64,000 bases of DNA from the NCBI GenBank assembly GCA_016928555.1, contig JAFGKM010000003.1, positions 1,112-65,111 on the forward strand. The letters are read 5' to 3'. The position numbers and the translations under genes were made by a program. This document shows, in pieces, positions 5,159-21,488 of this stretch. How positions within the stretch are numbered: the first letter of the stretch is position 1; each line of letters starts with the position of its first letter. Origin of the DNA: Candidatus Omnitrophota bacterium. GTDB taxonomy: Bacteria; Ratteibacteria; UBA8468; B48-G9; JAFGKM01. The notes under the pieces were generated by a model. That model was not told where the DNA came from. It did no database searches and worked only from the letters and a program-made list of their open reading frames with translations.

Positions 5159-5234
5159 AGTTATTCCTCCGTGGAAAATAATACCTGCAGGGCGGCAAAA
5201 TACCGCCCCGCAGATAGTGCGATGAACCGCACCG

Positions 5235-5660
5235 TTACTTTGCCTTTCCTGCCTCTTTCTCAAGTTCAGCAATCCTTTTCTTCATGTCGCCCAGCTGTTC
5301 CTCCAGAATCTTTGTCTGCGACTGAAGCATCTCCCTTTCTTGTTCTGGAGTTGCCTGCCAGACAGCATAAGGGTCGATTGCCGGGTCAGGAGCAAAAGGA
5401 TAGGATACAGGGCCTGTCGGATATGGTGCATTCCCAAAATAGGGGTTTCCGTAAAACCATCTGCCTCTTCCCATTCCTCTGCCAAAACCTCTGCCGAATC
5501 CTCTGCCTCTGCCAAACCCGCGGCCCCATCCAAAACCTAATCCGCGGCCGCCGGCATAAGGATTCATGTAACCGGGAACTCCATAACCTGCACAGTATCC
5601 TGCCGCCCTGCCTGTCATCGGACCGAGTCCTGCCGGTCCCGTTCCGTCTCCGCGTGGCAT
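5235..5660 (-). CDS. DUF5320 family protein with RGF/RGG low-complexity repeats and C-terminal coiled coil
   Basis: Start at ATG 5660 (MPRGDGTGPAGLGPMTGR) with AAGGAGGTGAG SD upstream, same start architecture as 3963-4181; (GRGFGRG)n repeats; C-terminal heptad-like ...EEQLGDMKKRIAELEKEAGK. Confidence 0.6.
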   Translation of the reverse strand: MPRGDGTGPAGLGPMTGRAAGYCAGYGVPGYMNPYAGGRGLGFGWGRGFGRGRGFGRGFGRGMGRGRWFYGNPYFGNAPYPTGPVSYPFAPDPAIDPYAVWQATPEQEREMLQSQTKILEEQLGDMKKRIAELEKEAGKAK

Positions 5661-5687
5661 ATTACTCACCTCCTTTACCCCGAACTC

Positions 5688-6185
5688 TCACATACTAAGC
5701 TTGCCAAGTGAGGGATTATGATTTTTATCTTCACTTCTGCATGTCTCACACAGTCCGTAAAAATGTATTATGTGACTTTTTATGTCAAACCGGTGTTTTT
5801 TGGCAAGCGCGTCCTCTGTTTTTTTAATCAGCTCCTTTTCCTCGTCAACAAAATCCGTATAGTTAACAATTTTTCTGCATTTTGTGCATACAAGATGGTG
5901 GTGGTGCGCATCTTTCCGGCTTCCTTCTATCAGCTCATACCTTGCCTTCCCGTCTCCGAAATCAAACTTTTGAACCATGCCCATCCTTGTCAGCAAATCA
6001 AGGGTTCTGTAAACGGTGGCAAAGCCGATTGAAGGGTTTATTCCGCGTACAAGAAAGTAAATATCCTCGGCGCTTAAATGTTTTGAGGTTTTACTTAGTA
6101 TGTTAAGAATAATCCTTCGCGCTTCCGTTATACGCAGACCTTCCGCAACCAGCCTTTGGTGCGCCCACGGGTTTCCGCATCTCAT
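5688..6185 (-). CDS. Fur-family metalloregulator (Fur/Zur/PerR superfamily)
   Basis: 165 aa; winged-helix N-term (TEARRIILNIL), HHHHLVC and CxxC metal-site motifs; own promoter carries a Fur box. Confidence 0.8.
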   Translation of the reverse strand: MRCGNPWAHQRLVAEGLRITEARRIILNILSKTSKHLSAEDIYFLVRGINPSIGFATVYRTLDLLTRMGMVQKFDFGDGKARYELIEGSRKDAHHHHLVCTKCRKIVNYTDFVDEEKELIKKTEDALAKKHRFDIKSHIIHFYGLCETCRSEDKNHNPSLGKLSM

Positions 6186-6196
6186 TTCCGCCCCCT

Positions 6197-6221
6197 AATG
6201 ATAATAATTCTCATTATCATT
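6197..6221 (-). promoter_or_regulatory. Fur box (inverted repeat AATGATAAT-n7-ATTATCATT; minus-strand reading GATAATGAGAATTATTATC)
   Basis: 17/19 match to canonical Fur box GATAATGATAATCATTATC; sits between -10 and SD of the fur-family gene. Confidence 0.7.
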
Positions 6222-6247
6222 TTACCTTTGTATAAAGCAACTGTCAA
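6219..6247 (-). promoter_or_regulatory. sigma70-type promoter (minus strand: TTGACA-17nt-TAAAAT) for the fur-headed operon
   Basis: Minus-strand read: cTCTTGACAgttgctttatacaaaggTAAAATgataatgag...; perfect -35, 17-nt spacer, 5/6 -10; Fur box overlaps -10/+1. Confidence 0.6.
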
Positions 6248-6321
6248 GAGATGATTGAAAATACTCTAAAGGGCTGGGATTGCCGCGCTGAGAAACGCTC
6301 GCAATGGCATAAAGCGCCAAT

Positions 6322-7023
6322 TTATGGGAGGAGGCTTTCCATGGATATCCTGCCCCAGACTCGCGCCATGGAAAAAGCCTCTGCGTATTCAACACCGCAC
6401 TGCACGCCCCTGAATCCTGCCACTTTCTCAAGCATCTTAACAGGTTCTGCCTGGTGGTGGCCCGAAAGCCACTTATACTGGCTTTCATGGGCAAGGAGCA
6501 TTTTCTTCTTTATCGCCATGAATTCTGTGATGTCAACGTAATGGCTCGGTTCAAAACCGAAGCCGGCAAGCGTTTCCATGTAGTAAATCGGCATGATTTT
6601 CTCATGGGCGGGAAGTTTTGTTTTATAAAGGGGAAGGGTTGCGGTGAAAGCCGCGTCAAATACAAGCCGGCCTGTTATTACATGGTCGGGCATGTAGTCG
6701 TTTACACTGTGGGTTATTATAACGTCGGGTTTTGCCATGCGTATGATATCCACAACCGCTATTCTCATTTCTTTTGTGGGATACAGGTCAAGGTCGCCTG
6801 CGACAGGCCCCAGCGCTTCCGCTCCTATGATTGCGGCGGAGTTTTTAGCTTCCCTGTCCCTGATATCCGCAAGTTCTTCGGGCGCTATGTCCTTTCCGCC
6901 CATGTTGCCGTTGCAAAGGTGGGCCATAAAAACTTTGTCTCCTCTTTTTGCGTACTTTGCGAGCGTTCCTCCGCAGAGTATTTCCAGGTCGTCAGGATGC
7001 GCTCCCACAGCCAGTATGTTCAT
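6322..7023 (-). CDS. PIG-L/LmbE-family N-acetylglucosaminyl deacetylase
   Basis: N-terminal 'ILAVGAHPDDLEI' (AHPDDE motif) and HxxH region characteristic of LmbE-like zinc deacetylases. Confidence 0.8.
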   Translation of the reverse strand: MNILAVGAHPDDLEILCGGTLAKYAKRGDKVFMAHLCNGNMGGKDIAPEELADIRDREAKNSAAIIGAEALGPVAGDLDLYPTKEMRIAVVDIIRMAKPDVIITHSVNDYMPDHVITGRLVFDAAFTATLPLYKTKLPAHEKIMPIYYMETLAGFGFEPSHYVDITEFMAIKKKMLLAHESQYKWLSGHHQAEPVKMLEKVAGFRGVQCGVEYAEAFSMARVWGRISMESLLP

Positions 7024-7036
7024 GCTTACTCCTCCT

Positions 7037-7987
7037 TTAATTGCATTCGGCGGTCAGCGGGCCGGCAAGTTCTTTAAGGAAAAAAAGTTTGCCAGGCAGT
7101 GTCGGCATGAAACTGCTCGGAATCCACGTGCTCGGACCGTGCCTCAGCGTTACCCATAAACTCATCCCCTGCCACATCATCCCTCTTCCGAGCGTACCGT
7201 CGGCCCCTCCGATTATTCTGTCGGCTTTCAGAAATATGCCCGGCCCTATCGTGTTGGCAAAGCATGGGACGAGAGTCGTCCTGCTTTTGAAGCTTGTTAT
7301 TGCATTCTGCTCAATGGTCAGAGGATGGAGTTTTGCGCCGACTCTGTATTCCTGTTTCTTCCATTCCTCCTCGGATTTGAATTCCGCGGCGAAATGCGGC
7401 TCCCAGAATGCTATGTGGAAAATCCTTCCTATGCCGAAAATCACAACCAGTTTCGCACCCTTTTTTTTCAGAGCGCTTATCCTTGAAGGATATTCGGGGA
7501 GCATCTTCTTTGTGGCGAAACACCTCTGGTTTTTGGGAACTGTAAGTTTGCCGAGCGGCCCGTAGAAAGCATCCTGCATTGCATTCTGGAATGCGCCCGG
7601 GTTATTTGAAGGCAGTGTTTTTCCGCCGCGGTCGCTCCATTCGTCCATGTTGAAACCGTACACATGCCTGCAGTCAACGTTCCATTCCCTGAGGAAATAA
7701 ACAATCCATTTGTACATCCCCATGGGGCCTACCGGAAGTATCAGTATCAGTTTTTTCCCCGCTTCCCGCGCAGTGCATATTTCCGCGGCTATCTCGTGCC
7801 CCATCTTTGCGTTGAATTCTTCCAGCGTTTCGCAGGGCACCGGGGCAAAGTTTTTGTTCCACCATTTCTGGCGCTCCGTTATTTTATCCGGGGGGTTAGC
7901 GCAGCATCCGTCAATCTTTTTCATGTCCCATCCGGCGGGAAAGAAATTTTCCAGAAGAGAGCCCTTCATAGTAGTTATAAGGTTCAT
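7037..7987 (-). CDS. Glucosamine-6-phosphate deaminase/isomerase (NagB) family protein
   Basis: '[12 protein letters not shown]...FNMDEW' and '[15 protein letters not shown]' correspond to NagB 'LGLPTGGTP...FNMDEY' and 'GGVGNDGHIAFNEP' motifs. Confidence 0.65.
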
Positions 7988-8051
7988 TGTTCCTCCTTGT
8001 TACCAACAGAGTTGAATTATAATAGCACAATATTTTTTGTTTGAAAAACGC

Positions 8052-8080
8052 TTGACTTTTTCAATTATTTATATTATTGT
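8052..8080 (+). promoter_or_regulatory. Putative promoter for degT-like operon (TTGACT-17nt-TATTGT)
   Basis: Good -35, weak -10; located in divergent intergenic region 7988-8116; SD GGGGAGGT 7 nt before ATG 8117. Confidence 0.3.
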
Positions 8081-8116
8081 AAATAACGTAAAAAATCAAA
8101 TACGGGGAGGTATAAA

Positions 8117-9376
8117 ATGGAAAAACTGGCAATTGAAGGGGGAAAACCGGTCAATGCTGAAAAGTTTCCGATGTGGCCGTCTTTTTCGGAAAAATCCATA
8201 AAGATGGTTTCCGAGCCGTTGAAGACGGGCAGGGTTAATTACTGGACTGGAGAAGAAGGCGTAAGGTTTGAGAAGGAATGGGCGAAATGGAACGGGGCAA
8301 AGTATGCCGTTACCACGACAAACGGCACAAGCGCCCTGCATACGGCCGTTGCGGCGCTCGGAATCGGACCCGGGGATGAAATTATATGCCCGTCATATTC
8401 CTTTATCGCCTCATCTTTCTGCGTATTGCAGGCAGGCGCCCTTCCCGTCTTTGCCGACGTTGACGAGTCGCATACCTTAAGCCCGAAAGAGATAGAGCCG
8501 CTTATTAACGAAAGGACGAAGGCGGTAATTGCCGTTCATCTTTACGGGGTTGTGGCGGACATGGAGCCGATTCTCGCGGTCGCCAAAAAACACAACCTTG
8601 CCGTTATAGAGGACTGCGCCCAGTGCTTCGGCGGGATTTACAAAGGCAATAAAGTAGGGACTGTCGGCGATGTAGGATGTTTCAGTTTCTGCCAGAGCAA
8701 GCATTTTACAACCGGCGGAGAAGGCGGGGCGATTATAACCGACAATGAGGATTTGTGGTGGGAGTGCAAGTCGTTCAGGGACCACGGTTATGACGTGAAA
8801 GAGCGCCTTCGCCTTCTTGAACTGGAAGAAAAACTTACATATATTCACAAGAGAGTCGGGTTTAATTACCGAATGACAGAGATGCAGTCTTTGATAGGCT
8901 TGTGCGAGCTTGAAAGGTTTGACAGTTGGAATCTTGCAAACAGAAAGAGAAATGCGAAGTATCTTATCGATGCATTGAAGGGGCATCCGCTGGTGCTTCA
9001 CACGCCGGTTGATACGCAGGAGAGGCAGAATGCGTTCTGGTGGGTGCCGTTTGTGATTGATGCGGATAAACTTAAGGTTACCGTGAAGCAGTTTGTCGCG
9101 GCGGTGGGAGCGGAAGGCGTGCCTGTTTACGGCGTCCAGTGGCCGGAGATGTACAGGGAAGCAGCTTATACCGGAAAACATGGCTTCGGGAAACTGCAGT
9201 ATCCGTTTAACGACCCGAGCGCAAGGAAGATTGATTACACCAAATTTGACTGCAAAAAGGCGCAGTGGCTTTCTAAGAGGACGATGAATTTCTTCCCGCA
9301 TCCGGTCTATGAGATAAAGCATATGGAAAAATGCGTTGAGGCGTTCAAAAAGGTTGCGGACGCATATATGAAATAA
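8117..9376 (+). CDS. DegT/DnrJ/EryC1/StrS-family PLP-dependent sugar aminotransferase
   Basis: 419 aa; conserved 'SFCQSKHFTTGGEGGAI' region containing the PLP-binding lysine; 'NGTSALH' motif. Confidence 0.85.
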   Translation: MEKLAIEGGKPVNAEKFPMWPSFSEKSIKMVSEPLKTGRVNYWTGEEGVRFEKEWAKWNGAKYAVTTTNGTSALHTAVAALGIGPGDEIICPSYSFIASSFCVLQAGALPVFADVDESHTLSPKEIEPLINERTKAVIAVHLYGVVADMEPILAVAKKHNLAVIEDCAQCFGGIYKGNKVGTVGDVGCFSFCQSKHFTTGGEGGAIITDNEDLWWECKSFRDHGYDVKERLRLLELEEKLTYIHKRVGFNYRMTEMQSLIGLCELERFDSWNLANRKRNAKYLIDALKGHPLVLHTPVDTQERQNAFWWVPFVIDADKLKVTVKQFVAAVGAEGVPVYGVQWPEMYREAAYTGKHGFGKLQYPFNDPSARKIDYTKFDCKKAQWLSKRTMNFFPHPVYEIKHMEKCVEAFKKVADAYMK

Positions 9377-9398: not shown

Positions 9399-9455
9399 TA
9401 AATCCCCCTGTTTCCCCCTTTGTCAAAGGGGGAATTCAAAGGGGATTTGGGAGGG
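9399..9455. repeat. 57-nt structured intercistronic repeat, copy 1 (identical to 58118-58174)
   Basis: TAAATCCCCCTGTTTCCCCCTTTGTCAAAGGGGGAATTCAAAGGGGATTTGGGAGGG; inner hairpin CCCCCTTTG/CAAAGGGGG (9414-9432), outer 7-bp stem AATCCCC/GGGGATT; ends in SD-like GGGAGGG 6 nt before ATG 9462. Confidence 0.7.
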
Positions 9456-9461
9456 GAAAGG

Positions 9462-10514
9462 ATGGCTGCGGTGAAAAAGGTAAATATGGGAGTCATGGGA
9501 GCAGGGGGGATAGCGTACAGGAGAACCATCCCCGGGATGCTGAAGGCAAAAAACATAAATCTTGCCGCGGTAATGGATGTCGTGCGGATTGAAGAGATAG
9601 CAAAAGAGTTTAATGTGCCTAAGGCTTATGTCTCTGAAAAAGAGATTGTCCGGGACCCTGATATTGATGCGGTTTATATCGCGAGTCCAGTATACCTGCA
9701 CCTGAAGCATATAAAACTGGCTGCCGAGAACGGCAAGCATATCCTGTGCGAAAAACCGATAACGGCAGCCATCAGGGAGGCAAAAGAGGCCGCCAATATA
9801 TGCAGAAAAAACAAGGTATTTTTTCAGGAAGGGTACATGATGAAATTTCACGGAGCCCACGAGAAAATAAGGGAAATTATAAGCGAAGGCGGAATCGGAA
9901 AGGTCGTTTACATAAGGGCGCAGTTATCCTGCTGGTATCCTCCGATGAAGGGGGCGTGGAGGCAGGACCCGAAAAAAGGAGGAGGCGGCTCCCTGATTGA
10001 TATGGCAACGCACCTTTACGACCTGCTTGAATTCTTCACGGGCGAGAAAATAGGGTGGATATCGGCCATATCTAATAACCAGGTACAGGGCTATAAGTCA
10101 GAGGATTCCTCAACAACGATGCTGGAGTTCAAGTCGGGAACCCATGCTACGGTGGACTGTTTTTTCTGTATCCCCGACGAGTCAACCAGAACCCGGCTTG
10201 AGATATACGGTTCGCAGGGCAGTATCTTCACCGAGGGGACGATAGGGCAGAGTACCGGCGGAACGATGGAAGGGATATTCGGACTCGGAGCCGGCGGGTA
10301 TGAGGCAAAACAGAGCAAGGACGTTACCCGCAGATTCAGAAGCATAAAATTCAAAAAAATCAATCCTTATACGGCGGAGTGCGAGTACTTTGCAAACTGC
10401 ATACTGAAAAATGAAAAGCCCGGGATAAACAGCATGGAGAACGCGCTCCACATAATGGACGTTACGGAAAAAGCGTACAGTTCCTGGAAACTCAAAAAAA
10501 TCCTCAGGGTATAG
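9462..10514 (+). CDS. Gfo/Idh/MocA-family NAD(P)-dependent oxidoreductase
   Basis: Start moved to ATG 9462 (MAAVKKVNMGVMGAGGIAY, Rossmann GxGxxG); the track ORF start 9420 reads through the repeat element. 'ILCEKP' motif typical of the family. Confidence 0.8.
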   Translation: MAAVKKVNMGVMGAGGIAYRRTIPGMLKAKNINLAAVMDVVRIEEIAKEFNVPKAYVSEKEIVRDPDIDAVYIASPVYLHLKHIKLAAENGKHILCEKPITAAIREAKEAANICRKNKVFFQEGYMMKFHGAHEKIREIISEGGIGKVVYIRAQLSCWYPPMKGAWRQDPKKGGGGSLIDMATHLYDLLEFFTGEKIGWISAISNNQVQGYKSEDSSTTMLEFKSGTHATVDCFFCIPDESTRTRLEIYGSQGSIFTEGTIGQSTGGTMEGIFGLGAGGYEAKQSKDVTRRFRSIKFKKINPYTAECEYFANCILKNEKPGINSMENALHIMDVTEKAYSSWKLKKILRV

Positions 10515-10517: not shown

Positions 10518-10973
10518 TTATTGTTTTTTCTTCGGCGCGAGGAGTTCCAAATCGGCTTTATCCTGTTTTCTGCCCGAAACCTTTTTGCTTTTTATCAGAT
10601 GTGCAAGGTCTATAAAATTAACTTTTATCTTTCCGTATTGTCCCTTTTTGCGATTTTTCCAGATTTCAGCGAAATCTAAATGGGATATTGAAGTGATTAT
10701 GTCTATTCTCACAGGTTCATATCCCAGCTGAATAATTTGCTCTTCGCAGATAAAATCCTTTTCGGAGAGATTTAGCGATTTGAACCCGAATTCATTCAGC
10801 GCTTTAAGAATTTTCCTGGCATTTCCCGGTGTCGGCTCAATCAGGATGTCAATGTCTTTGGTATACCGGGGCATGGCGTAAAAAGCAACCGCATATGCGC
10901 CGATGATGCAGTATTTAACCTTGTTTTTGTTTAATAATTCTAACAACTCTGCGTAGTCTTTTTCCGTTTTCAT
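10518..10973 (-). CDS. Pol-beta-superfamily nucleotidyltransferase-fold protein (possible toxin-antitoxin component)
   Basis: 151 aa; 'IIGAYAVAFYAMPRYTKDIDILIE' fits G[SA]-x(9-13)-DxD minimal nucleotidyltransferase motif; no SD; inserted between two unrelated operons. Confidence 0.45.
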   Translation of the reverse strand: MKTEKDYAELLELLNKNKVKYCIIGAYAVAFYAMPRYTKDIDILIEPTPGNARKILKALNEFGFKSLNLSEKDFICEEQIIQLGYEPVRIDIITSISHLDFAEIWKNRKKGQYGKIKVNFIDLAHLIKSKKVSGRKQDKADLELLAPKKKQ

Positions 10974-11118
10974 AATTAGTTTTGTTTATCTTAAACCACA
11001 TTTCTCTTAACATCTGAACGGTCTCTAACCTTTGTTCGGCGCTCATCTTCAAATAATAATTTTTATCAAACCGTGCGGCTTCTGCAAAATTTCCCGCTTT
11101 ATTTACCCAAATCTTCAT
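10915..11118 (-). CDS. Small hypothetical protein (67 aa) overlapping the nucleotidyltransferase start by 59 nt
   Basis: Has GGAG SD 9 nt upstream of ATG 11118; basic C-terminus; no recognisable family; could be spurious. Confidence 0.25.
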   Translation of the reverse strand: MKIWVNKAGNFAEAARFDKNYYLKMSAEQRLETVQMLREMWFKINKTNYENGKRLRRVVRIIKQKQG

Positions 11119-11213
11119 ATTTTCCGCTCCGTTAATGTGGTGAGTTCCTTAGGTAATTATACTATATCTCCACCTATTTTACCAATATCTCATAATGGTT
11201 TTTATCTTATCCC

Positions 11214-11242
11214 TTGACACTTTTTATTTCTGATAGTATAAT
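11214..11242 (+). promoter_or_regulatory. Consensus sigma70 promoter (TTGACA-17nt-TATAAT) for the iclR/queG-like operon
   Basis: Perfect -35 (11214-11219), 17-nt spacer, perfect -10 (11237-11242); SD ATAAGGAGG at 11271-11279 before ATG 11281. Confidence 0.6.
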
Positions 11243-11280
11243 AATACAAAATTTAATTCAATATTATAAAATAAGGAGGC

Positions 11281-12036
11281 ATGATGATACAGGTGCTTGA
11301 AAGGGCGTTCAAGATACTGGATTTTATCGCGGAGAATCCCGAAGAACCTAAAGGCCTTGGTGCTCTTGCTAAATACGGCGGGCTTAATCAGGGAACCTGC
11401 GCCAATATTGTAAAGAGTTTGTGCCAGCACAATTTTCTGGAACAGGTCGGCAGGAAAAAAGGGTATATTCTCGGGCCGGCCGTCTATTATCTCGCCCGCA
11501 ACGGGCCCTACCGCAGGGATATCGTTGCGGCGGCGGAACCTTTGCTGTCGCGCCTTGCTTCGGAGGTGCAGGAAACGGTTCTTGTTGCAACCCTCCATCA
11601 GGGAAAAAGGTCTATTCTCCTGCAGGTAAACGGCAACAGGGTGATGAATATAAGCAATGACTTTCTTCTGCAGGAAAGCACCTATGATACTGCTACGGGA
11701 CGGCTGCTTCTTGCTTTCCTGTCTGCTTCAGAACTGGAGAATTTTTTGGCCCGGAAGGGACTGCCCGGCAGGGAAGCATGGCCGGAAGCGGCAAGTAGAA
11801 AAAAACTTGACGCCTGTTTATGCGAAATAAGAAAAAAAGGCGTTGTCATGCACAGTTCGCGGCCTGATATTATGGGTATAAGCTATCCCTTGAAAAGCGA
11901 AGGCGAGGTGATTGCGGCGCTGGGGTTGTTTCTCCCGTCTTTCAGGTTTAAAGGGAAACATAAAGAGCTGGTGCTTAAAAAAATGGGAAAAACCGCAGAT
12001 GAGATAAGTAAAACTATAATAGGGAGGATGCAATGA
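11281..12036 (+). CDS. IclR-family transcriptional regulator
   Basis: N-terminal 'VLERAFKILDFIAE' HTH typical of IclR; C-terminal effector domain length; ATGA 4-nt overlap with next gene. Confidence 0.8.
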   Translation: MMIQVLERAFKILDFIAENPEEPKGLGALAKYGGLNQGTCANIVKSLCQHNFLEQVGRKKGYILGPAVYYLARNGPYRRDIVAAAEPLLSRLASEVQETVLVATLHQGKRSILLQVNGNRVMNISNDFLLQESTYDTATGRLLLAFLSASELENFLARKGLPGREAWPEAASRKKLDACLCEIRKKGVVMHSSRPDIMGISYPLKSEGEVIAALGLFLPSFRFKGKHKELVLKKMGKTADEISKTIIGRMQ

Positions 12037-14264
12037 ATATAACGGAAGAAGTTTTGAAAAAAGCGAAAGAGTTGGGTTGTGATTTAGCAGGCATTGCGCC
12101 GGTGGAAAGGTTTAAGAACGCGCCTTTGCGGATGAGCCCCAAGGGTCTTCTGCCTTCTGCAAAGTCTGTTATTGTCGCGGGCATTCATCATCTGGATGCC
12201 TCGGTTGAGATGGGCGGTGAACCTACACCGCACGACAAGGGCCCTTATGCGAGTCAGAGTTCGGTAATTAATCCCAAACTGGATGACATTTCTTTTTTGC
12301 TGGCACGGTTTCTTGAGGGCAAAGGATATACTGCTCTTCCCATAACGGCAAGCAATATCTGGCGTTACCATCATTACAAAGACTTGAAAGTGGATTTTGC
12401 CCCGGACCTTGCCCACCGTTACTCAGCGGTGGCCGCGGGACTGGGCGAAATCGGCTGGTCTGGACTTTTCCTCTCTCCCCAATTCGGGCCCAGGCAGAGG
12501 GTGATATCCATTATTACCGAGGCGGAATTGAAACCTACGCCTATGTATGACGGTCCTCCTCTCTGCGACAAATGTTTTGAGTGCGTAAAAACCTGTCCGA
12601 CGGATGCTTTCCGCAAAGAGGTAAAAAAAATAAACGAAATAGAGATAGGAGGGAAAATTTTCAAGTTTCCCGAAATAAACAAGTGGCGGTGCGCATGGGC
12701 GGAGAATTTCGGGCTGAATCTTTCCCACAAGATACCGGAAAAGGTGGATGAAAAAGTTATTCTGGAGTACCTTGAAAGATACGGCATGTTTGCCGGGGAA
12801 GAAGGTTCCTGCCTGAAATTCTGCATGGTGCCGGAGAAAAGGTATTACGATACCGGTTACTGCAGGGCTCCGAGGAGGAAGAAACAGCATCTGGTTTCTC
12901 CTGAGAAAGCAAGCGCGGAGATAAGGGCGATGTGCGAGAATGCGGGAGCGGATGCGTATTGCATACTGCCGGCAGATTCGTTCAGCGGAGATATAGAGAT
13001 GCATCCGGCACTTCATATGCCGGATGCCGCTTCCGTAATTTCAATCGGGATGGATGTCCCTCTTTATAATGCCGCCAACCGGGAGGTTTGCGAAACCATC
13101 AGCCGCAGGCTCTATTATCTTGCCTTTGACATAGCGCACTATTTTGATGTCAACGGGTACTCTGGGATAACGCAGACGAAGATTTCAAACGACCGGGTGG
13201 CGCAGAAGGCCGGACTTTACAGGGAAAACAGGCTTTTTATGACGGTGTTGGTGAGTGCGAAAATGAAACAATCAGCTTGCTACAGCAATGTGGCAAAAGG
13301 GAAGAAGACAAAAATTGACGGGAAAAGCATAAAAGATTTTTGCCTTAAGTCCGGAGCTGACATTGCCGGAATATTCAACACGGCAAGGTTTGAAGAATTT
13401 AGCAGGGAATTTGAAAAAAAGATGCATGTTTCGGAAGAAATAAAGGCGGTAAAGGACAAGGGATGCATTTACGGGCAGTATGTTCCTGAAATATACAGCG
13501 AAAGGTTTTTTCTCAAGACTCCCGCAAGCTGGCTCAAAAATGCAAGGTCAGTGATTGTTCTCGGACTGCATTTTCCTGACAGCGCTCTGGATACGGCAAA
13601 GGTAACGCCTGCCGAAACAGTCGGCCCTTACGCCTTTGTACAGTATGAATCCCTGCGTTTGCTCAAGGATGCAGCGTTGAAGGTTGTCAGGCATCTTAAA
13701 TCTCATGGATACCGTGCGGTATTCACTGCGGACATGACGGGGCTTGCTTCGATAACACACAATCCCCGTGAGGTTACTCCGGACATGAGGGCGAATCTTT
13801 ATCCGGCGATGCTTGCCGGGCTTGCTTACCCGGGACTGCACGGATGTCCGATTACCGAAAAATTCGGCGTCCGGCAGAGGTTTCTTGCGATTGTCACCGA
13901 CTGCCCACTGGAAAATGACCCTCTCTATGCCGGGGAATATGCCTGTTCCGAATGTGGAAAACCATGCATTTCTCACTGCCCGACCAAGGCTCTTAAAGAG
14001 GAGTTTTCTGAGATAACAGTTGAAGGGAAGAAATTCCGCCTTCCTTCGATTGACAATTATGCCTGCGAATGGGCGAAAAGGTATGTTCTGAGCGGTAAAG
14101 AGGGTCCCGAGTACTACGGTTTGAAATCAGATACCCCCGTACCGGAGAAAAAAAATGCGGAAGCGATTGTAAAAGCGGTTAACAAAATTGACTGGGGCGT
14201 GCAGAAACGCTTGATGAGCATATGCGAAGAGTGCATAAAGGTGTGCCCCGAAAAGGGGGAGTGA
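12033..14264 (+). CDS. Tandem-duplicated QueG/reductive-dehalogenase-like Fe-S protein (two DUF1730-like modules fused)
   Basis: Two repeats of 'A..GLGE.GW...FL.P.FGPRQR' (compare QueG 'GIGFSAKNCMITPEYGS'); module 1 retains CxxCxxCxxxCP (CDKCFECVKTCP); module 2 has CSECGKPCISHCP. Confidence 0.55.
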   Translation: MNITEEVLKKAKELGCDLAGIAPVERFKNAPLRMSPKGLLPSAKSVIVAGIHHLDASVEMGGEPTPHDKGPYASQSSVINPKLDDISFLLARFLEGKGYTALPITASNIWRYHHYKDLKVDFAPDLAHRYSAVAAGLGEIGWSGLFLSPQFGPRQRVISIITEAELKPTPMYDGPPLCDKCFECVKTCPTDAFRKEVKKINEIEIGGKIFKFPEINKWRCAWAENFGLNLSHKIPEKVDEKVILEYLERYGMFAGEEGSCLKFCMVPEKRYYDTGYCRAPRRKKQHLVSPEKASAEIRAMCENAGADAYCILPADSFSGDIEMHPALHMPDAASVISIGMDVPLYNAANREVCETISRRLYYLAFDIAHYFDVNGYSGITQTKISNDRVAQKAGLYRENRLFMTVLVSAKMKQSACYSNVAKGKKTKIDGKSIKDFCLKSGADIAGIFNTARFEEFSREFEKKMHVSEEIKAVKDKGCIYGQYVPEIYSERFFLKTPASWLKNARSVIVLGLHFPDSALDTAKVTPAETVGPYAFVQYESLRLLKDAALKVVRHLKSHGYRAVFTADMTGLASITHNPREVTPDMRANLYPAMLAGLAYPGLHGCPITEKFGVRQRFLAIVTDCPLENDPLYAGEYACSECGKPCISHCPTKALKEEFSEITVEGKKFRLPSIDNYACEWAKRYVLSGKEGPEYYGLKSDTPVPEKKNAEAIVKAVNKIDWGVQKRLMSICEECIKVCPEKGE

Positions 14265-14266
14265 TA

Positions 14267-15094
14267 ATGGAAAGTTATAAACTGAAGGAATATGCGAAAA
14301 AGGCAGGGGCGGATATCGTCGGGATTGCGAACATAAAAAGGTTTGATGAATTGCCTTCCGAAAAACATCCGTGTTCAATTTTTCCCGAAGCAAAATCCGT
14401 AATTGTACTTGGAAGGCGTATTACAAGAGGTGCTTTGAGAGGCGTTGAGGAGGGAACAAACTTCCAGAATTACGCGCTTTACGGCTATGACTGGCTTGAC
14501 AACCGGTTTTTGGCCCTCACCACATTCACCGTTTCCGAGTTTCTTGAGGATAACGGCTGGGAGGCAGTGCCTCTGCAGAACCTGCCGCCGGAGGTCCCGC
14601 CCATGGGCGTCTCTGTCAGGGAAGGAAGTCCGGCACCAAATATTATGCTGGATTTTGATGATGCGGCGGTCAGGGCCGGCGCCGGAGAGATAGGATACTG
14701 CGGCGTTTTTCTGACTCCGGAGTTCGGTCCGCGCCAGCGTTTCCAGATAATTCTGACGGATGCGGAGATTGAGCCGGACCCTCTGTCGGCTGAACCTGTA
14801 TGCCTCTTTGATAAAGGCTGCAGGGGATTCTGTCCGCTCGGAGCGTTTGAAGGAGAGAAGGAAATTATTATCGCAGGAAAAAAGATGACGGGGGCGGGGA
14901 TAGATTACAGGGGTAAATGCCTCACCTGTAAAAACGGTGCTATGCCAAACCGTTATCACCCCGCAGGAAGGCCTGACCGTCTCGCCGCTGTCTGTATAAG
15001 AAGCTGCGCGGATGCTCTCGAAAAAAGCGGGCGCATCAAAAACAGGTTTGAACTTCCGTTCCGCATGAGAGACGCATGGACAGTAAAAGATTAA
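14267..15094 (+). CDS. QueG/reductive-dehalogenase-like Fe-S domain protein (paralog)
   Basis: Start set to ATG 14267 (MESYKLKEYAKKAGADIVGIAN) with GGGGGAG SD; 'PEAKSVIVLGRRI', 'GAGEIGYCGVFLTPEFGPRQRF'; degenerate Cys motif Cx5Cx3CP. Confidence 0.55.
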   Translation: MESYKLKEYAKKAGADIVGIANIKRFDELPSEKHPCSIFPEAKSVIVLGRRITRGALRGVEEGTNFQNYALYGYDWLDNRFLALTTFTVSEFLEDNGWEAVPLQNLPPEVPPMGVSVREGSPAPNIMLDFDDAAVRAGAGEIGYCGVFLTPEFGPRQRFQIILTDAEIEPDPLSAEPVCLFDKGCRGFCPLGAFEGEKEIIIAGKKMTGAGIDYRGKCLTCKNGAMPNRYHPAGRPDRLAAVCIRSCADALEKSGRIKNRFELPFRMRDAWTVKD

Positions 15095-15144
15095 ACTGAT
15101 TTATACGGTTTGTAAAAACTATATCTGACAGGAAGGAGAAATGA

Positions 15145-16200
15145 ATGGATAAAAAACCGACGAAAAAAAAGATAAAAGAATTTGCGCTGTCCCGCGGTCT
15201 TGATCTTTTTGGCATCGCCAATATAGAAAGGTTTAAAGGCGCTCCGAAGAGGATGCATCCCGCAAGCATATTTCCCGAAGCAAAGTCGGTAATAGTCGTA
15301 GGCAGGCGTATTGTCCGCGGCGGCTGGCGCGGTATTGAAGAAGGGACTTACTGGCCTAATTATACATACTTTGATTACCACGGTCTTCTCAATTCCTATT
15401 TTTTGCAGCTGCCGCTCTATGAAACCTCCTGTTTTATAGAAAATTTCGGGTATGAAGCGGTTCCTGTTTATTCGGGGGTCCCTGAAGCAGAGCCGGCTGG
15501 AGAGGTCTTGCGACCGGGGGGTGTTGCCCCCGATGTCTGGCTGGCTATCCGTATAGCTGCGGTGGCAGCGGGCATAGGCGAAATCGGGTGGTCTAAAGTC
15601 TTTTTAACAAGGAAATTCGGACCAAGACAGAGACTTGCTGCGATATTAACCGACCTTGAACTTGAGCCGGATCCGCTCGTTGAGCCGAACAGCATATGCA
15701 AGCTTGATATGGCCTGTGTCAGGGGATGTCCGGGCGCCATACCTCACATAAAAAAGAAGAAGTTTGTGGAAATAAAAATAGAGGATAAGACGTACAGGTG
15801 GGCTGACGTGGACATGGGTAAATGCACCCTTATTTACCATGGAGGAGACCCGCGTATGTCACCGTTTATACCAAGGGCGTTACCGGGATACAGTTTTGAC
15901 GTAATGCAGCAAAATGTTTCGGAAGAGACTGCATACAAGTTTTGCTGGCCCATGTCGAGCAATATATGGAGAAAAACGGAAGAAGACCCTTCAGGATATA
16001 TAATAGAAGGGCACGCCTACATAAAGAAATGGGGGCAGGCTGGAAGTTACGGGATTGGAGGTTCGCGCGGATGCATGCGCAGTTGTTTTGACTATCTTGA
16101 AAAACACAACATGATTGAACAGACCTTTCATAACGGGCCTTTTATCAGGCGTTCCAGGTGGATGCTTGATTGTTCAGGGAACCCCGTGGAAAGGCGATAA
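15145..16200 (+). CDS. QueG/reductive-dehalogenase-like Fe-S domain protein (paralog)
   Basis: GGAAGGAG SD 6 nt upstream; 'PEAKSVIVVGRRI', 'GIGEIGWSKVFLTRKFGPRQRL'; Cys motif Cx5Cx3CP. Confidence 0.55.
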   Translation: MDKKPTKKKIKEFALSRGLDLFGIANIERFKGAPKRMHPASIFPEAKSVIVVGRRIVRGGWRGIEEGTYWPNYTYFDYHGLLNSYFLQLPLYETSCFIENFGYEAVPVYSGVPEAEPAGEVLRPGGVAPDVWLAIRIAAVAAGIGEIGWSKVFLTRKFGPRQRLAAILTDLELEPDPLVEPNSICKLDMACVRGCPGAIPHIKKKKFVEIKIEDKTYRWADVDMGKCTLIYHGGDPRMSPFIPRALPGYSFDVMQQNVSEETAYKFCWPMSSNIWRKTEEDPSGYIIEGHAYIKKWGQAGSYGIGGSRGCMRSCFDYLEKHNMIEQTFHNGPFIRRSRWMLDCSGNPVERR

Positions 16201-17754: not shown

Positions 17755-19171
17755 GCGGAACCATCCGCGCTATCTTTCCGGATAACCCCGCGCCTTCCAC
17801 TATCTCTATCACTTCGTCTATGTCCTTGTATGCTTCAGGCATTTCCTCCGCAAGCCCTTTACCGCTGACGCCTTTTGCCAGTATGCCGCGTCCGGCAAGC
17901 TCCCCGGCGATTGACCTGTTTCTGCCTTCTTTTACCGCCTGGTGTCTTGACATCATCCTGCCCGCTCCGTGGCAGGTGCTTCCCCACGTTTCCTCCATCG
18001 CTTTCTCGGTGCCCACGAGTATATAAGAAGATGTTCCCATGGTGCCGGGGATAATGACCGGCTGTCCCGTGCTTCTATACCTTTCCGGCAGCTGCGGATG
18101 TCCCTTGGGGAATGCTCTTGTCGCTCCTTTGCGGTGGACATACAGCGTTTTTTCCCTCCCGTCCACAGTGTGTTTTTCAATTTTGCAGATGTTATGGGTT
18201 ACGTCATAGACAAGGGACATCTGCATTTTTTCATATGGCACCCCGAACACAGAGGAGAAGGTCTCCCTTATCAGGTGCGTCATAATCTGCCTGTTGGCAA
18301 AGGCATAGTTTGCCGCGGCGTTCATCGCCCTGAAATACCGCCTGCCTTCTTTTGACGATACGGGCGCACAGGCGAGCTGTCTGTCGGAAAGTTTTATGCC
18401 GTAATCCGCGGCCACCCTGCCGAATCTGTCAAGGTAGTCGCCGCATACCTGATATCCGAGCCCTCTGCTGCCCGAGTGGACCATCACCGTTATTTGCCCG
18501 GGAAAGATGCCGAACGAATCGGCCGCCGTTTTGTCGTATATGTCCGCCACACGCTGGATTTCAATAAAATGGTTGCCCGAGCCGAGCGTGCCGAGCTGGG
18601 AAGTCCCTCTTTCGTAAGCCCTGTTGCCCACCGCGTCCGGGTCGGCTTCTTTTATCCTTCCGTTTTCCTCCGTGTTTTCAAGGTCGCCCGCTGTTCCGAA
18701 CCCGTTTTTTACCGCCCATTCTGCACCCTCTGCCGTCACTTTTTCAAGGTCTTTTCTTTTCAGCTTAAGGGCGCCGGTTGAGCCTACTCCGCAGGGAATA
18801 TTTGTGAAAAGAAGGTTTATCAGGTCTTCCAGTTTATTCTTAACGTCATCTGCCGTTAAGTTGCTTCTTATAAGCCGCACCCCGCAATTTAGGTCGTAGC
18901 CCACAAATCCGGGGGCGATAACTCCCGATTCCGCGTCAAATGCGCCGACTCCCCCTATTGGCGCCCCGTAGCCCCAGTGGACGTCGGGCATGGCAAGGCT
19001 GTATTTGACTATACCGGGAAGTTTTGACACGTTTATTATCTGCTCGGGGGCTTTTTCGGAGACGGCTTTATTCAGAAGTTTTTCCGAGATGTAAATAATG
19101 CCGGGGACGCGCATCCCTTCCATTCTCGGGATAAGCCACTTGAAGTCATTAATCTTTTCTATGGATATCAT
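17735..19171 (-). CDS. rtcB: RtcB-family RNA 3'-phosphate ligase
   Basis: 478 aa; N-terminus aligns with archaeal RtcB (..RVPG..Y); 'GYDLNCGVRL', 'GSGNHFIEIQ', 'HRKGATRA', 'STCHGAGR' signature motifs. Confidence 0.9.
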   Translation of the reverse strand: MISIEKINDFKWLIPRMEGMRVPGIIYISEKLLNKAVSEKAPEQIINVSKLPGIVKYSLAMPDVHWGYGAPIGGVGAFDAESGVIAPGFVGYDLNCGVRLIRSNLTADDVKNKLEDLINLLFTNIPCGVGSTGALKLKRKDLEKVTAEGAEWAVKNGFGTAGDLENTEENGRIKEADPDAVGNRAYERGTSQLGTLGSGNHFIEIQRVADIYDKTAADSFGIFPGQITVMVHSGSRGLGYQVCGDYLDRFGRVAADYGIKLSDRQLACAPVSSKEGRRYFRAMNAAANYAFANRQIMTHLIRETFSSVFGVPYEKMQMSLVYDVTHNICKIEKHTVDGREKTLYVHRKGATRAFPKGHPQLPERYRSTGQPVIIPGTMGTSSYILVGTEKAMEETWGSTCHGAGRMMSRHQAVKEGRNRSIAGELAGRGILAKGVSGKGLAEEMPEAYKDIDEVIEIVEGAGLSGKIARMVPLAVIKG

Positions 19172-19727
19172 TATTTCCTGAGGATTGGAGCATGTCCCAT
19201 CCTGTTTCTATACTTTTTTTGCTTAGGGCGGCAAGTTCTTTTGAAGGGAGGATTTTATCGGCCGAGTAGTATAAGCCTGTTCTGGTAAAGGGGAAGAAAT
19301 TAGCGTTTATTACGTATGCCAGCGCCCCTGCCGCTACCATGTTGGCGGTTTTTATACTGCCTTCTTTTTCCGCGGTTTCGCTGGCGGGTATCTCCGCTAT
19401 TTTGTAGCCGGAAGAGCCGGGTTTTTTAATGAGTGAGGAGTTTAAAATCAGGTGAGCGTCTTTTTTGAGGTATCCCCTCAGCATTTTGAACGATTGTTCA
19501 TTCATGAACACGCCTATGTCCGTTTCCGAACTGACGGGAGAAGAAATCTTGTCTGAAGAGGAAATTACTATCGTGCAGTATACGTATCCTCCGCGCATCT
19601 CGGCTCCGTATGAAGGCAGGCAGGAGACCTGCAGTTTCTGGTGCATCGCGGCATAAGAAATGACCTTTCCTAGCGTCAGTATGCCCTGTCCGCCCGAGCC
19701 GCCTGTGATTATTCTGACTTTTTCCAT
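19149..19727 (-). CDS. 2-oxoacid:ferredoxin oxidoreductase gamma-subunit-family protein (orphan)
   Basis: 'IITGGSGGQGILTLG' matches POR/IOR gamma GxGGQG motif; similar to IorB at 59641-60207; no alpha/beta partner nearby; overlaps rtcB start by 23 nt. Confidence 0.6.
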   Translation of the reverse strand: MEKVRIITGGSGGQGILTLGKVISYAAMHQKLQVSCLPSYGAEMRGGYVYCTIVISSSDKISSPVSSETDIGVFMNEQSFKMLRGYLKKDAHLILNSSLIKKPGSSGYKIAEIPASETAEKEGSIKTANMVAAGALAYVINANFFPFTRTGLYYSADKILPSKELAALSKKSIETGWDMLQSSGNNDIHRKD

Positions 19728-19745
19728 AATCCGCCTTTCATGTTT

Positions 19746-20711
19746 TTACGTCCACCACGCCTTTGGTTTTGCCTCAACTATAAGGATGTTTTTGAGGAAA
19801 CTGACCGCTTTTCCCAGTCCTTCGTCAACGCTCATCAGACTGTCCTCGTGTTCTATGCTGAGCGTTCCGTCATAACCTGTCATTCTGAGCGCTGATACAA
19901 AATCATTCCAGAACTCATGGCTGTGCCCGTACCCTACGGTTCTAAAAATCCATGAGCGGTTAATCTCGTCAAGATACGTCTTTGTGTCAAGAACGCCGTT
20001 TACCGAAGTATTGCAAACGTCTATTTTTGTGTCCTTCGCATGTACGTGGTATACGGCGCCTTTTAGTTTTTTTAGGGCGGCAAGCGGGTCTATCCCCTGC
20101 CAGAAGAGGTGGCTCGGGTCAAAGTTGGCGCCTATCTCTTTCCCTGCGGCGTCCCTCAGCTTCAACAGAGTTTCGGGGTTATAGACAACAAATCCCGGAT
20201 GCATCTCAAGGCATATCTGTTTCACGTTGTGGTTTTTTGCAAACCTGACTTCTTCCTTCCAGTACGGGATTGCCTTCTTTTCCCACTGCCACCTGACTAT
20301 CTTTGAAAAATCATCGGGCCACGGGCATGTTACCCAGTTGGGGTATTTTGCCTTTTCATTGTCTCCCGGACAGCCGGAAAAGGTTATGATGCGCGGTATC
20401 CCGAGCTTTTCGGCAAGAAGAATAGTCTTTCTCTGGCAGTCTCTGTGCGCTTTCGCTATTGTGGAATCCGGATGCAGTGGATTGCCGTGGCAGGAGAGGG
20501 CGGATATTTCCAGACCCCTTTCCGCAACTGCATCTCTGAATTTCTTAAGCGCTGAATCGCTTTTGAGCAGTTTTTCGGGATTGCAGTGTGCGTTCCCGGG
20601 GTAGTTGCCCGTTCCTATCTCCACGGTATCAAGGCCCAGTCCCTTTGCCCTGTCCAGCGCCTGTTCAAAAGTCTGACTGCTGAAAAGCACAAGAAAAACA
20701 CCCAGTTTCAT
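19746..20711 (-). CDS. Sugar phosphate isomerase/epimerase (xylose-isomerase-like TIM barrel)
   Basis: Start set to ATG 20711 (MKLGVFLVLFS); 'LSIEHED' and His/Glu/Asp metal ligand pattern typical of AP-endonuclease-2/xylose isomerase-like TIM barrels. Confidence 0.7.
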   Translation of the reverse strand: MKLGVFLVLFSSQTFEQALDRAKGLGLDTVEIGTGNYPGNAHCNPEKLLKSDSALKKFRDAVAERGLEISALSCHGNPLHPDSTIAKAHRDCQRKTILLAEKLGIPRIITFSGCPGDNEKAKYPNWVTCPWPDDFSKIVRWQWEKKAIPYWKEEVRFAKNHNVKQICLEMHPGFVVYNPETLLKLRDAAGKEIGANFDPSHLFWQGIDPLAALKKLKGAVYHVHAKDTKIDVCNTSVNGVLDTKTYLDEINRSWIFRTVGYGHSHEFWNDFVSALRMTGYDGTLSIEHEDSLMSVDEGLGKAVSFLKNILIVEAKPKAWWT

Positions 20712-20901
20712 ATGCCCGTCTCCTTCTCCTCCGATATTCAAAAAGAGGATAGGTTTAAAACTTAGCACATTGTTTCTGCACTGTCAATGAAGCTGCAACC
20801 ATAAACGCGGTAAGGCACTAAAATATCTGTAAAAACGGGAAGACATCCTGTATAATATCTTGGTATAGTCAGCAACTGATACCAAAAAAGGAGGTTTCCC
20901 G

Positions 20902-21488
20902 ATGAGTAGATATAGAATACCACCGAGCAAGAAAATACGCAAGGAAATAAGGGCAATGGCAGAAGGTATTACAAGCGAAGGGAAGTTTGAAGGTAATCCG
21001 ATAGAGAAGCTGATGGAAAAGGCAAAGTTGTTGATAGTGGAGGAACTTTTGGAGAAAGAAGTGGAAGAGTTTCTGGAGCGGCCATACTATCAACGCAAGA
21101 AGGCGGAGGGTGAACTTAAGGGCTACCGGAACGGATACGAACCGCGCAAGTTGAAGACAGCAGAGGGAGCATTAACTTGGAGGTTCCGCAGGTACGTGAC
21201 AGCCAGGAACCGTTCCGTTCGCAGATACAGAAGTTTTTTAAGAATAATACGGATGTGCTTGAAAAACTGTCCACGGAGATGTATGCCAGAGGTTTAAGCA
21301 CTCGGGGTATAGAGGATGCGCTGTATACGGCAACAGGTGACCGGCTGCTGTCCAAAAGCAGTGTCTCGCGGGTAACCGAGATACTGTGGAAAGAATACGA
21401 GTGGTTTATCAGCCGGGACTTGACCTTCCATAAATTCCTTTATTCAAAAGAAAATAGATGGTCGAACTTCGTTATAAATCCTTCTTAA
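20902..21488 (+). pseudogene. IS256-family (Mutator-like) transposase remnant: N-terminal ~190 aa, frameshifted near 21175, 3' part missing
   Basis: Frame 1 'ELLEKEVEEFLER...KGYRNGYEPRKLKTAEGAL' then frame 3 'EVPQVRDSQEPF...EMYARGLSTRGIEDAL...SKSSVSRVTEIL' match the IS256 transposase N-terminal region; no catalytic DDE part; marks the start of a lower-GC island. Confidence 0.7.

Follow-up and report, generated by a model that had tools for sequence, protein, structure and literature searches.

The window analysed here, a 64-kb stretch of a Candidatus Omnitrophota metagenome-assembled genome (MAG), carries a regulator gene, iclR, followed by three consecutive genes that we call A, B and C. In the NCBI annotation (MBN1444539-42) their products are one 'HTH domain-containing protein' and three 'hypothetical proteins'. 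A, B and C are built from modules of the type found in the reductive dehalogenases (RdhA) and in the epoxyqueuosine reductase QueG. Together with their homologs they stand apart within the class III B12-type fold as a branch of their own, fused in A and predicted to be heteromeric in B-C, with a dedicated and conserved regulatory cassette. The locus comprises the following features:

11214-11242, forward strand: sigma-70-type promoter, with TTGACA at 11214-11219, a 17-nt spacer and TATAAT at 11237-11242 (12/12 matches)
11245-11272, forward strand: operator-like element between the -10 box and the ribosome-binding site (RBS), with TACAAAA-TTTAA-TTCAATA (11245-11263) followed by TTATAAAAT (11264-11272)
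11281-12036, forward strand: iclR, IclR-family transcription regulator of 251 aa, with Pfam HTH_IclR and IclR_C (MBN1444539.1)
12033-12887, forward strand: module 1 of A (aa 1-285), RdhA/QueG-type alpha/beta domain and ferredoxin domain
12900-13322, forward strand: vestigial half-module of A (aa ~290-430), alpha/beta domain only, without AGLG/GPRQR motif and without Fe-S motif
13323-14264, forward strand: linker and module 3 of A (aa 431-743), the second complete module
14267-15094, forward strand: protein B, 275 aa, predicted smaller subunit of the conserved B-C pair, no Pfam or NCBIfam match
15145-16200, forward strand: protein C, 351 aa, predicted larger and most conserved subunit, no Pfam domain, sub-threshold matches to reductive dehalogenases and QueG only

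Organisation and control of the operon

The stop codon of iclR (TGA, 12034-12036) overlaps the start codon of A (ATG, 12033-12035) in an ATGA, B starts at 14267, 2 nt past the stop of A and at the same position as in the NCBI annotation, with its RBS AAGGGGGAG inside the end of A, and C closes the gene order 50 nt after B with a strong RBS of its own, AGGAAGGAGAA. Next to C, 5 nt away, is the end of a convergent patatin gene, so that the operon consists of iclR-A-B-C only. Both the ATGA overlap and the perfect promoter ahead of iclR had been reported in a preliminary description of this DNA, and both are present. A perfect TTGACA-N16-18-TATAAT occurs twice in the window, against 0.03 occurrences expected; the other one, again with a 17-nt spacer, lies at 33591-33619 (reverse strand), just upstream of an open reading frame (ORF) of 351 aa (32529-33584, reverse strand). 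An Rfam scan of the window gave no cobalamin riboswitch and no other RNA family.

The region upstream of iclR was aligned for 12 loci, namely the window (11208-11283) and L003, L010, L015, L018, L025, L026, L028, L030, L032, L033 and L034. In all 12, TTGACA is invariant 50-70 nt before the iclR ATG, and it is followed by a -10-like box and then by a palindrome. In loci from Planctomycetota, Verrucomicrobiota, Ratteibacteria and TA06 this palindrome is TGTAAAA-N5-TTTTACA, followed by (A)TTATAAAA and the start codon; it is perfect (7/7) in L032, matches at 6/7 positions in L030, L028 and L034, and is trailed by ATTATAAAA upstream of iclR. Promoter and palindrome are kept in at least five phyla. 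The half-sites of the window form a weaker palindrome (4/7), homologous to this element by position and sequence, and an inverted-repeat search gave 13-nt arms at 11241-11253 and 11255-11267 with 77% complementarity. The putative operator would be the binding site of IclR, and its position just downstream of the -10 box would suit a repressor, IclR, that controls its own gene and leaves the DNA in response to an effector. Such depth of non-coding conservation across phyla is unusual and suggests that the whole cassette moves horizontally; as regulator, promoter, operator and enzyme genes are conserved together, it would have spread as a unit.

The regulator combines an N-terminal HTH_IclR domain (PF09339, 29.4 bits against a cut-off of 22, E = 7e-7) with a C-terminal IclR_C effector domain (PF01614, 60.1 bits against a cut-off of 24, E = 2.6e-16), the architecture that assigns it to the IclR family. 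It shares with PcaR/PobR, IclR, KdgR and BhcR this pair of domains, a gene immediately upstream of the target operon and a palindromic operator (here predicted) next to the promoter. It differs from them in being co-transcribed with and translationally coupled to its targets instead of divergent, and in scoring below the cut-off of each curated NCBIfam equivalog (PcaR, IclR, BhcR, KdgR and AllR). The linkage was followed in a survey of 87 loci by all-vs-all ORF clustering and targeted counting. Directly upstream of B-C, an IclR-type gene was found in at least 24 of the ~87 loci, an AraC-type gene in 11 and a gene of the GntR-periplasmic-binding type (GntR-PBP) in three, which also carry a ThuA-like protein. 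The recurrence of this linkage, together with the conserved promoter and operator-like palindrome, bears out the dedicated IclR regulator that had been proposed for A, B and C.

Modules, fold and conserved residues

Internal BLAST comparisons, with identities of 29-49% and E values from ~1e-30 to ~1e-60, establish A, B and C as consecutive paralogs, as the preliminary description had claimed. B and C are 49% identical (~1e-60), the N-terminal module of A is 36% identical to C (1e-34) and 33% to B, and the N- and C-terminal modules of A, which is a single ORF of 743 aa (12033-14264, forward strand), share 29% (1e-30). In the AlphaFold2 (AF2) model of A (pLDDT 92.7, pTM 0.93) the same order of helices and strands occurs three times, with a ferredoxin domain on copies 1 and 3 only; the middle copy gives a weak internal BLAST match (A residues ~294-380) to the N-termini of B and C. 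The total is four complete modules (A1, A3, B and C) and one vestigial module reduced to its N-domain, in three ORFs, and not the five modules in four reading frames counted initially. Scored against the family HMMs, module 1 of A reaches 141 bits with the C-family against 112 with the B-family, and module 3 reaches 59 bits with the B-family against 52 with the C-family, a marginal difference, so that A resembles a C-like and a B-like module fused through a vestigial spacer. The core motifs KSVIV.G and A.AGLGE.GW...FL.P.FGPRQR, initially ascribed to all three paralogs, are found in A1, B and C, whereas A3 has the variant LAGLAYPGLHG...FGVRQR. In protein C, C227 and C310 are separated by an 80-residue insert, and an aromatic-rich loop, R58-GGWRGIEEGTYWPNYTYFDYHGLLN-83 (R58-N83), is invariant; this loop has low confidence in the AF2 model and is likely a pocket or lid element.

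No twin-arginine translocation (TAT) signal and no transmembrane segment was detected in A, B or C (Kyte-Doolittle(19) maximum <1.6). None has an N-terminal RR followed by a hydrophobic stretch, the sole RR being R54-R55 of C, inside the fold, and no small hydrophobic ORF of the rdhB anchor type adjoins the three genes. The predicted location of A, B and C is thus the cytoplasm. The same three absences, of TAT signal, transmembrane segment and rdhB gene, rule out a respiratory RdhA.

Pfam detects in A a Fer4-type match (Fer4_16) and a fragment of QueG_DUF1730 (positions 1-23 of 77), and none in B or C. With TIGR00276 (QueG, cut-off 200 bits) A scores 66.4 and C 24.6 bits, and with TIGR02486 (RdhA, cut-off 160.35 bits) 70.1 and 31.4 bits, respectively; B matches neither. 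Among PDB sequences, the best matches are PceA-type dehalogenases, followed by QueG and then by NpRdhA (with the C-family profile, E = 7e-16 for PceA 8q4h, 9e-9 for PceA 4uqu, 5e-6 for QueG and 7e-3 for NpRdhA). Foldseek searches with the AF2 models of A and C (pLDDT 79.5 for the latter) gave a probability of 1.0 to QueG, PceA and NpRdhA only (E 1e-7 to 1e-11), with NpRdhA as the top match of A (2e-11) and QueG as that of C (6e-8). MMACHC/CblC comes next; the matches listed all bind corrinoid, and the best 50 include no flavin nitroreductase (lowest listed E 0.012 for A, 0.15 for C). Foldseek and Pfam together describe a nitroreductase-like, cobalamin (Cbl)-type domain fused to a 2x[4Fe-4S] ferredoxin domain. 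Profile searches and predicted folds thus provide solid support for membership of A, B and C in the RdhA/QueG fold superfamily, that of the class III cobalamin enzymes, and not in an unrelated family.

In Bacillus subtilis QueG, a HEAT-like RNA-binding domain spans L257-L385 (PMC5175355). This domain is absent from the Pfam results and from the AF2 secondary structure of A, B and C: past the last cluster Cys there are 28 residues in B and 37 in C, and A owes its extra length to further modules. The D-Y-H motif of QueG is likewise in no module of A, B or C, and orthology to QueG is ruled out by the TIGR00276 scores and by the lack of both the HEAT-like domain and this motif. The preliminary description was therefore right in setting the genes apart from tRNA queuosine maturation (66 and 25 bits against 200, no tRNA-binding HEAT domain).

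The predicted Fe-S ligands are C178-x2-C181-x2-C184-x3-C188-P, C220 and C260-x3-C264 in A1; C638-x2-C641-x3-C645-x3-C649-P, C678 and C734-x3-C738 in A3; C179-x2-D182-x2-C185-x3-C189-P, C218-x2-C221 and C243-x3-C247 in B; and C185-x2-D188-x2-C191-x3-C195-P, C227 and C310-x3-C314 in C. A1, A3 and C thus have seven ligand positions, not eight Cys. The seven Cys of each complete A module are invariant in 36 A orthologs, and C185, C191, C195, C227, C310 and C314 are invariant in 68 C orthologs; of these, 45 have Cys at position 188 and 23 have Asp, the residue of the window protein. This exchange identifies the motif first read as Cx5Cx3CP as a Cys/Asp-interchangeable CxxC/DxxCxxxCP motif; the first reading holds for B and C (as CxxDxxCxxxCP) but not for A, whose second motif is CxxCxxxCxxxCP, with four Cys. 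Asp-ligated clusters are found in Pyrococcus-type ferredoxins. The ferredoxin motifs had been considered only partly intact; the ortholog alignments indicate instead that the deviations are conserved family-wide variants and not decay. In S. thermophilus QueG the distal cluster is bound by Cys184, 187, 190 and 243, and the proximal cluster by Cys194, 210, 236 and 239 (PMC4646009). The proximal-site Cys of B (C189, C218, C221 and C243) are present in 68/68 orthologs.

Leaving the Cys aside, conservation is strongest in the AAG.GE.GW helix and in GPRQR, both nearly invariant in A1, B and C. In 68/68 C orthologs the second Arg of GPRQR is present; it aligns with Arg305 of PceA, an active-site residue that forms a proton-transfer pair with Tyr246 and that QueG lacks (PMC4646009). 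Each module also has an invariant Tyr (A Y72, B Y69, C Y73/Y78), just before the long helix that precedes the strand-loop-AGLG helix, and it is plausible that this residue occupies the topological place of QueG Tyr101 and PceA Tyr246. The HMMER mapping of residues is secure for the AGLG helix and GPRQR only, the Tyr and Asp/Asn positions lying in loops of unequal length. B carries D129-x6-R136-AG.G, the spacing of Asp134 and Arg141 in B. subtilis QueG, in which Arg141 lies under the corrin (PMC5175355); C and A1 have Ala at the Arg position. The position aligned with the QueG Asp (130/134; PMC4646009, PMC5175355) is His128 in A1 and Ile135 in C, and is a conserved Asp in B only.

Compared with known systems, A, B and C share several features with the respiratory RdhA PceA (PDB 4UQU, 8Q4H), the best profile match: a two-cluster ferredoxin domain behind a nitroreductase-like corrinoid-type domain, the A.AGLG helix, the FGP..R Arg aligned with the catalytic Arg305, and paired modules, which in PceA form a homodimer and here would be two different subunits, B and C. 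They differ from PceA in lacking the TAT signal, the RdhB gene and the N-terminal extension, in having 275-351 aa per B or C subunit against ~450-550 aa, in the seven against eight Cys ligands of A1, A3 and C, in a TIGR02486 score far under the cut-off, and in lying amid sugar and oligomer utilisation genes and not in organohalide-respiration clusters. The catabolic RdhAs (NpRdhA/BhbA; PDB 4RAS, 6ZXX) are cytoplasmic, as predicted for A, B and C, and NpRdhA is a pseudo-dimer in which a vestigial duplicated corrinoid domain mimics the dimer partner (PMC10463259), a parallel to A. In contrast to NpRdhA, to which sequence similarity is marginal (E 0.004-0.007), A, B and C have no PDOR reductase domain, which most catabolic RdhAs possess, A has two complete Fe-S modules and not one, and the B-C form is split over two genes. 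QueG (PDB 5D6S, 5D08), also cytoplasmic and soluble, has the same core of Cbl-domain and ferredoxin-domain, the D-x6-R-AGxG spacing of B and the top Foldseek match of C, but it has the HEAT-like domain and D-Y-H, and lacks the RdhA-type Arg, the heteromeric or fused multi-module architecture and the dedicated effector-binding regulator. With CblC/MMACHC (PDB 3SOM), a weak Foldseek match (E ~1e-2), A, B and C have in common the nitroreductase-like fold for base-off cobalamin but no similarity at the sequence level; CblC lacks a ferredoxin domain and acts on the cofactor itself.

Distribution and gene neighbourhoods

Relatives of C gave 935 matches, and those from other phyla are 64-85% identical to C of the window. 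Scanning one representative genome for each species turned up 345 stretches with a gene for a C relative, which amounts to at least 345 species. The best 80 of these 345 belong to Ratteibacteria, Omnitrophota, Verrucomicrobiota, Planctomycetota, Lentisphaerae/Victivallales, Kiritimatiellia, Armatimonadota, Hydrogenedentota, Firestonebacteria, Chloroflexota, Bacillota/Limnochordia and 'Ca. Thermosaccharophagus'. An exhaustive profile search at E<=1e-30 yielded 218 clusters (50% identity) in length classes of ~290, 350 and 760 aa. A-type proteins of ~740 aa, with 40-77% identity, were found in Omnitrophota, WOR-3, TA06, Verrucomicrobiota, Kiritimatiellia, Planctomycetota and Anaerolineae, among others. 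In the databases the homologs are called hypothetical, 'ferredoxin' or, wrongly, QueG, and in the literature on DUF1730, the QueG/RdhA superfamily, RdhA-like genes of Planctomycetes and QueG with IclR we found no description of the A/B/C clade; closest comes a remark on cytosolic rdhA-like genes beside IclR/MarR regulators (PMC12219181).

The conserved unit is B followed immediately by C, with a gap of 0-12 nt in the loci inspected. Strict adjacency filters left 68 pairs, with a mean pairwise identity of 55% for B and 68% for C (C minimum 55%). A is present in 21 of the 87 loci, typically between the regulator and B. Genes for A-type proteins of ~740 aa also occur without B-C (L005, 10001-18643; L008, 10001-17917; L001, 403-4815), and there they adjoin or overlap genes for GH123_N, GHL6 or CBM9 proteins of 1000-1470 aa, which hints at a separate, glycan-linked role for the fused A form. 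Two to four B-C pairs stand in tandem in L038 (5305-15588), L040 (754-4440), L084 (1830-6671) and L003 (12174-16071), the L038 array being interleaved with SBP5 solute-binding proteins and a U32-peptidase-like gene; these arrays resemble a substrate-driven expansion of paralogs.

None of the 87 loci revealed a constant partner gene that would name a pathway, and only regulators recur directly beside B-C. DegT, Gfo/Idh/MocA, FAD oxidoreductases, SBP5 transporters and esterases are each found in only 4-10 of the 87 loci; other recurrent neighbours are a GlcD-like FAD oxidase, ThuA-like proteins, GH123_N/CBM9 proteins and, in Bacillota, SBP5/Opp transporters. The window has a DegT/DnrJ/EryC1 aminotransferase gene (8117-9376) and a Gfo/Idh/MocA oxidoreductase gene (9420-10514), both on the forward strand, and DegT and Gfo/Idh/MocA lie near B-C pairs in 6-10 other loci of different phyla. 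The A/B/C system may thus be linked to amino- or keto-sugar metabolism. Before these two genes are, on the reverse strand, a PIG-L-type de-N-acetylase gene (6322-7023) and an ORF of 316 aa (7037-7987). Between the DegT and Gfo/Idh/MocA genes and iclR sits a unit that resembles a toxin-antitoxin pair (10518-11118, reverse strand), consisting of an ORF of 67 aa and a DUF6036/DUF2204 nucleotidyltransferase of 151 aa; it is divergent from iclR and has a promoter-like site of its own (10/12 matches, 11185-11156, reverse strand).

In L064, from 'Ca. Thermosaccharophagus', B-C is immediately preceded, on its own strand, by a complete 2-oxoacid:ferredoxin oxidoreductase (PFOR) operon with a tandem-Usp gene (4824-9089), and judging by gene lengths L063 and L068 may be arranged alike. 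The PFOR operon of L064 is a plausible source of low-potential electrons. In the window there is a lone POR gamma-subunit-like gene beside rtcB (19149-19727, reverse strand).

A cluster resembling glycan-degradation genes occupies 23194-31649 of the window (reverse strand) and encodes a URO-D-like protein (379 aa), a sulfatase/phosphodiesterase-like protein (330 aa), an alpha-L-fucosidase-like protein (407 aa) and a protein of 1520 aa with CBM_4_9, GH42M and MG2 domains. URO-D-like genes stand beside glycoside hydrolases also in L007 and L089, and their products may be corrinoid-dependent methyltransferases acting on methylated sugars. L089 has genes for a URO-D-like protein, a CbiA-like ATPase and a RACo-type reductive activator (492-1661 and 18690-21068), 5-8 kb from A-B-C, which shows that corrinoid enzymology exists in that organism. 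Two adjacent ORFs of the ParA/CbiA P-loop type are located at 2208-3961 of the window (reverse strand), one of which (3080-3961) has an inserted 2x[4Fe-4S] ferredoxin motif and is NUBPL/Mrp-like.

Proposed function and alternative explanations

In our view, iclR-A-B-C is best explained as an effector-controlled operon for a cytoplasmic, ferredoxin-fed and probably corrinoid-dependent reductase of the RdhA/QueG fold that acts on a small molecule, a reading to which we give an even chance. The inducible reductive pathway for a small molecule suggested in the preliminary description remains in this form the best-supported reading, in which cobalamin binding and the chemistry are predictions. B and C would be the two subunits of a conserved heterodimeric enzyme, in keeping with the paired modules of the superfamily (PceA homodimer, NpRdhA pseudo-dimer; PMC10463259), and A would be a fused relative made of a C-like, a vestigial and a B-like module. 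Each complete module consists of a nitroreductase-like domain, of the type that in RdhA, QueG and CblC binds base-off corrinoid, and of a two-cluster ferredoxin domain. IclR, on the operator downstream of the -10 box, would respond to a small-molecule effector by release or activation. Electrons from ferredoxin (reduced, for example, by a 2-oxoacid:ferredoxin oxidoreductase) would pass through the distal and then the proximal cluster to the corrinoid, and Co(I) would attack a carbon bearing a leaving group in a small metabolite whose probable origin is a carbohydrate or imported oligomer. The Tyr/Arg pair would provide protons for a two-electron reductive elimination, comparable to dehalogenation or epoxide reduction. 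The retention of the RdhA Tyr/Arg-type residues together with the redox chain points to such a Co(I)-mediated C-X cleavage with protonation, and the sugar/acid-type regulators, amino- and keto-sugar enzymes, very large glycoside-hydrolase-like proteins and oligomer transporters weakly favour a carbohydrate or oligomer substrate over organohalide pollutants.

Several points weigh against this proposal. The scores are far under the curated cut-offs of both reductive dehalogenases and QueG, corrinoid binding, in A, B and C a prediction, is defined by no simple sequence motif, and the operon has neither a cobalamin riboswitch nor a B12 gene. According to the sequence-based mapping, A1, A3 and C have no equivalent of QueG Cys236, a ligand of the proximal cluster; this would leave a three-Cys proximal cluster, which may be a [3Fe-4S] cluster or have a non-Cys or inter-subunit fourth ligand. 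In the 68 B orthologs the distal-cluster ligands are variable and often lost. Since no neighbour other than the regulator is constant, the substrate class is suggested only weakly, and the best 80 of the 345 loci are all from MAGs and hence offer no physiology to draw on.

Loss of the cofactor gives a serious rival reading. The scaffold could have been kept and cobalamin lost, giving a corrinoid-free oxidoreductase with Fe-S clusters, or with Fe-S and flavin or another cofactor, or an electron-transfer complex. The corrinoid-binding domain of the superfamily is a nitroreductase-type module (PMC4646009), duplicated copies of it can lose cobalamin, as in NpRdhA (PMC10463259), and both the departure from eight canonical Cys and the very low scores with the two curated families would fit. 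We nevertheless consider it the less probable reading: the strongest conservation outside the Cys falls on the AAG.GE.GW helix and GPRQR, the latter aligned with the active-site Arg305 of PceA, the listed fold matches all bind corrinoid, with no flavin nitroreductase in the best 50, and the invariant loop R58-N83 of C argues for a catalytic pocket over a simple electron wire. Somewhat less probable still is a non-respiratory (catabolic or detoxifying) reductive dehalogenase, which would act on natural organohalogens in the cytoplasm, with IclR sensing the halogenated substrate. It would explain why PceA-type RdhAs are the best sequence matches and NpRdhA the top fold match of A, and why the catalytic Arg specific to RdhA and absent from QueG is kept; in a metagenome survey, cytosolic rdhA-like genes were often found with IclR/MarR regulators and galactose-degradation genes (PMC12219181). 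However, A and C reach 70 and 31 bits of the 160 required by TIGR02486, B and C have 275-351 aa against the ~450-700 aa of characterised RdhAs, and the neighbourhoods are dominated by sugar, amino-sugar and oligomer-uptake genes and not by aromatic or haloalkane catabolism. A C protein that is 55-85% identical across phyla would also be unusual for RdhAs, which diversify with their substrates.

The other fold match, CblC/MMACHC, raises the question of a corrinoid-processing enzyme, either a CblC-like dealkylase/decyanase or a reductive activator, that conditions salvaged cobamides. Genes for components of corrinoid methyltransferase systems (URO-D-like, MTTB, Met_synt_B12 and RACo proteins) do occur within ~10 kb of A or B-C in several loci, and in the window a URO-D-like gene lies ~7 kb downstream of C, but these neighbours are neither adjacent nor constant. 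Such a role is very improbable considering also the absence of a cobalamin riboswitch from the window (Rfam), the sugar/small-acid type of the regulators (IclR, AraC, GntR-PBP), and the tandem B-C pairs of L038, L040 and L084, which suggest substrate diversification. An isofunctional QueG, reducing epoxyqueuosine to queuosine in tRNA, is close to refuted: some database records do name homologs 'epoxyqueuosine reductase QueG', A has the partial QueG_DUF1730 match, and the D-x6-R-AGxG spacing in B is like that of D134/R141 in B. subtilis QueG, but against these stand the TIGR00276 scores, the missing D-Y-H and C-terminal HEAT-like RNA-binding domain (PMC5175355), the dedicated effector-binding regulator and the multi-copy arrays. 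The layout of the locus gives no hint of anti-phage defence, a reading at which no search was aimed.

Returning to the corrinoid-dependent reductase, to our knowledge only two activities have been characterised among class III B12 enzymes, reductive dehalogenation and epoxyqueuosine reduction. A more far-reaching possibility, which we put forward tentatively and do not regard as probable, is that B-C and the fused A represent a third functional branch of these enzymes: a heteromeric, ferredoxin-driven Co(I) reductase that would carry out an undescribed reductive elimination on a non-halogenated carbohydrate or oligomer metabolite in anaerobic glycan degraders of many phyla, and that would be encoded in a mobile, self-contained cassette. 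Candidate reactions would be a deoxygenation or the removal of an ester or ether leaving group.

The clade is large, strongly conserved and widespread, and its hosts are uncultured anaerobic polysaccharide degraders of the Omnitrophota, Planctomycetota, Verrucomicrobiota, Kiritimatiellia, Lentisphaerae, Armatimonadota, Limnochordia and Ratteibacteria. The compact, regulator-linked system is experimentally tractable. If a corrinoid is bound, these proteins would add a new reaction type and a new demand for B12 to anaerobic carbon cycling, and if it is not, they would represent a reuse of the RdhA scaffold for the chemistry of another cofactor.

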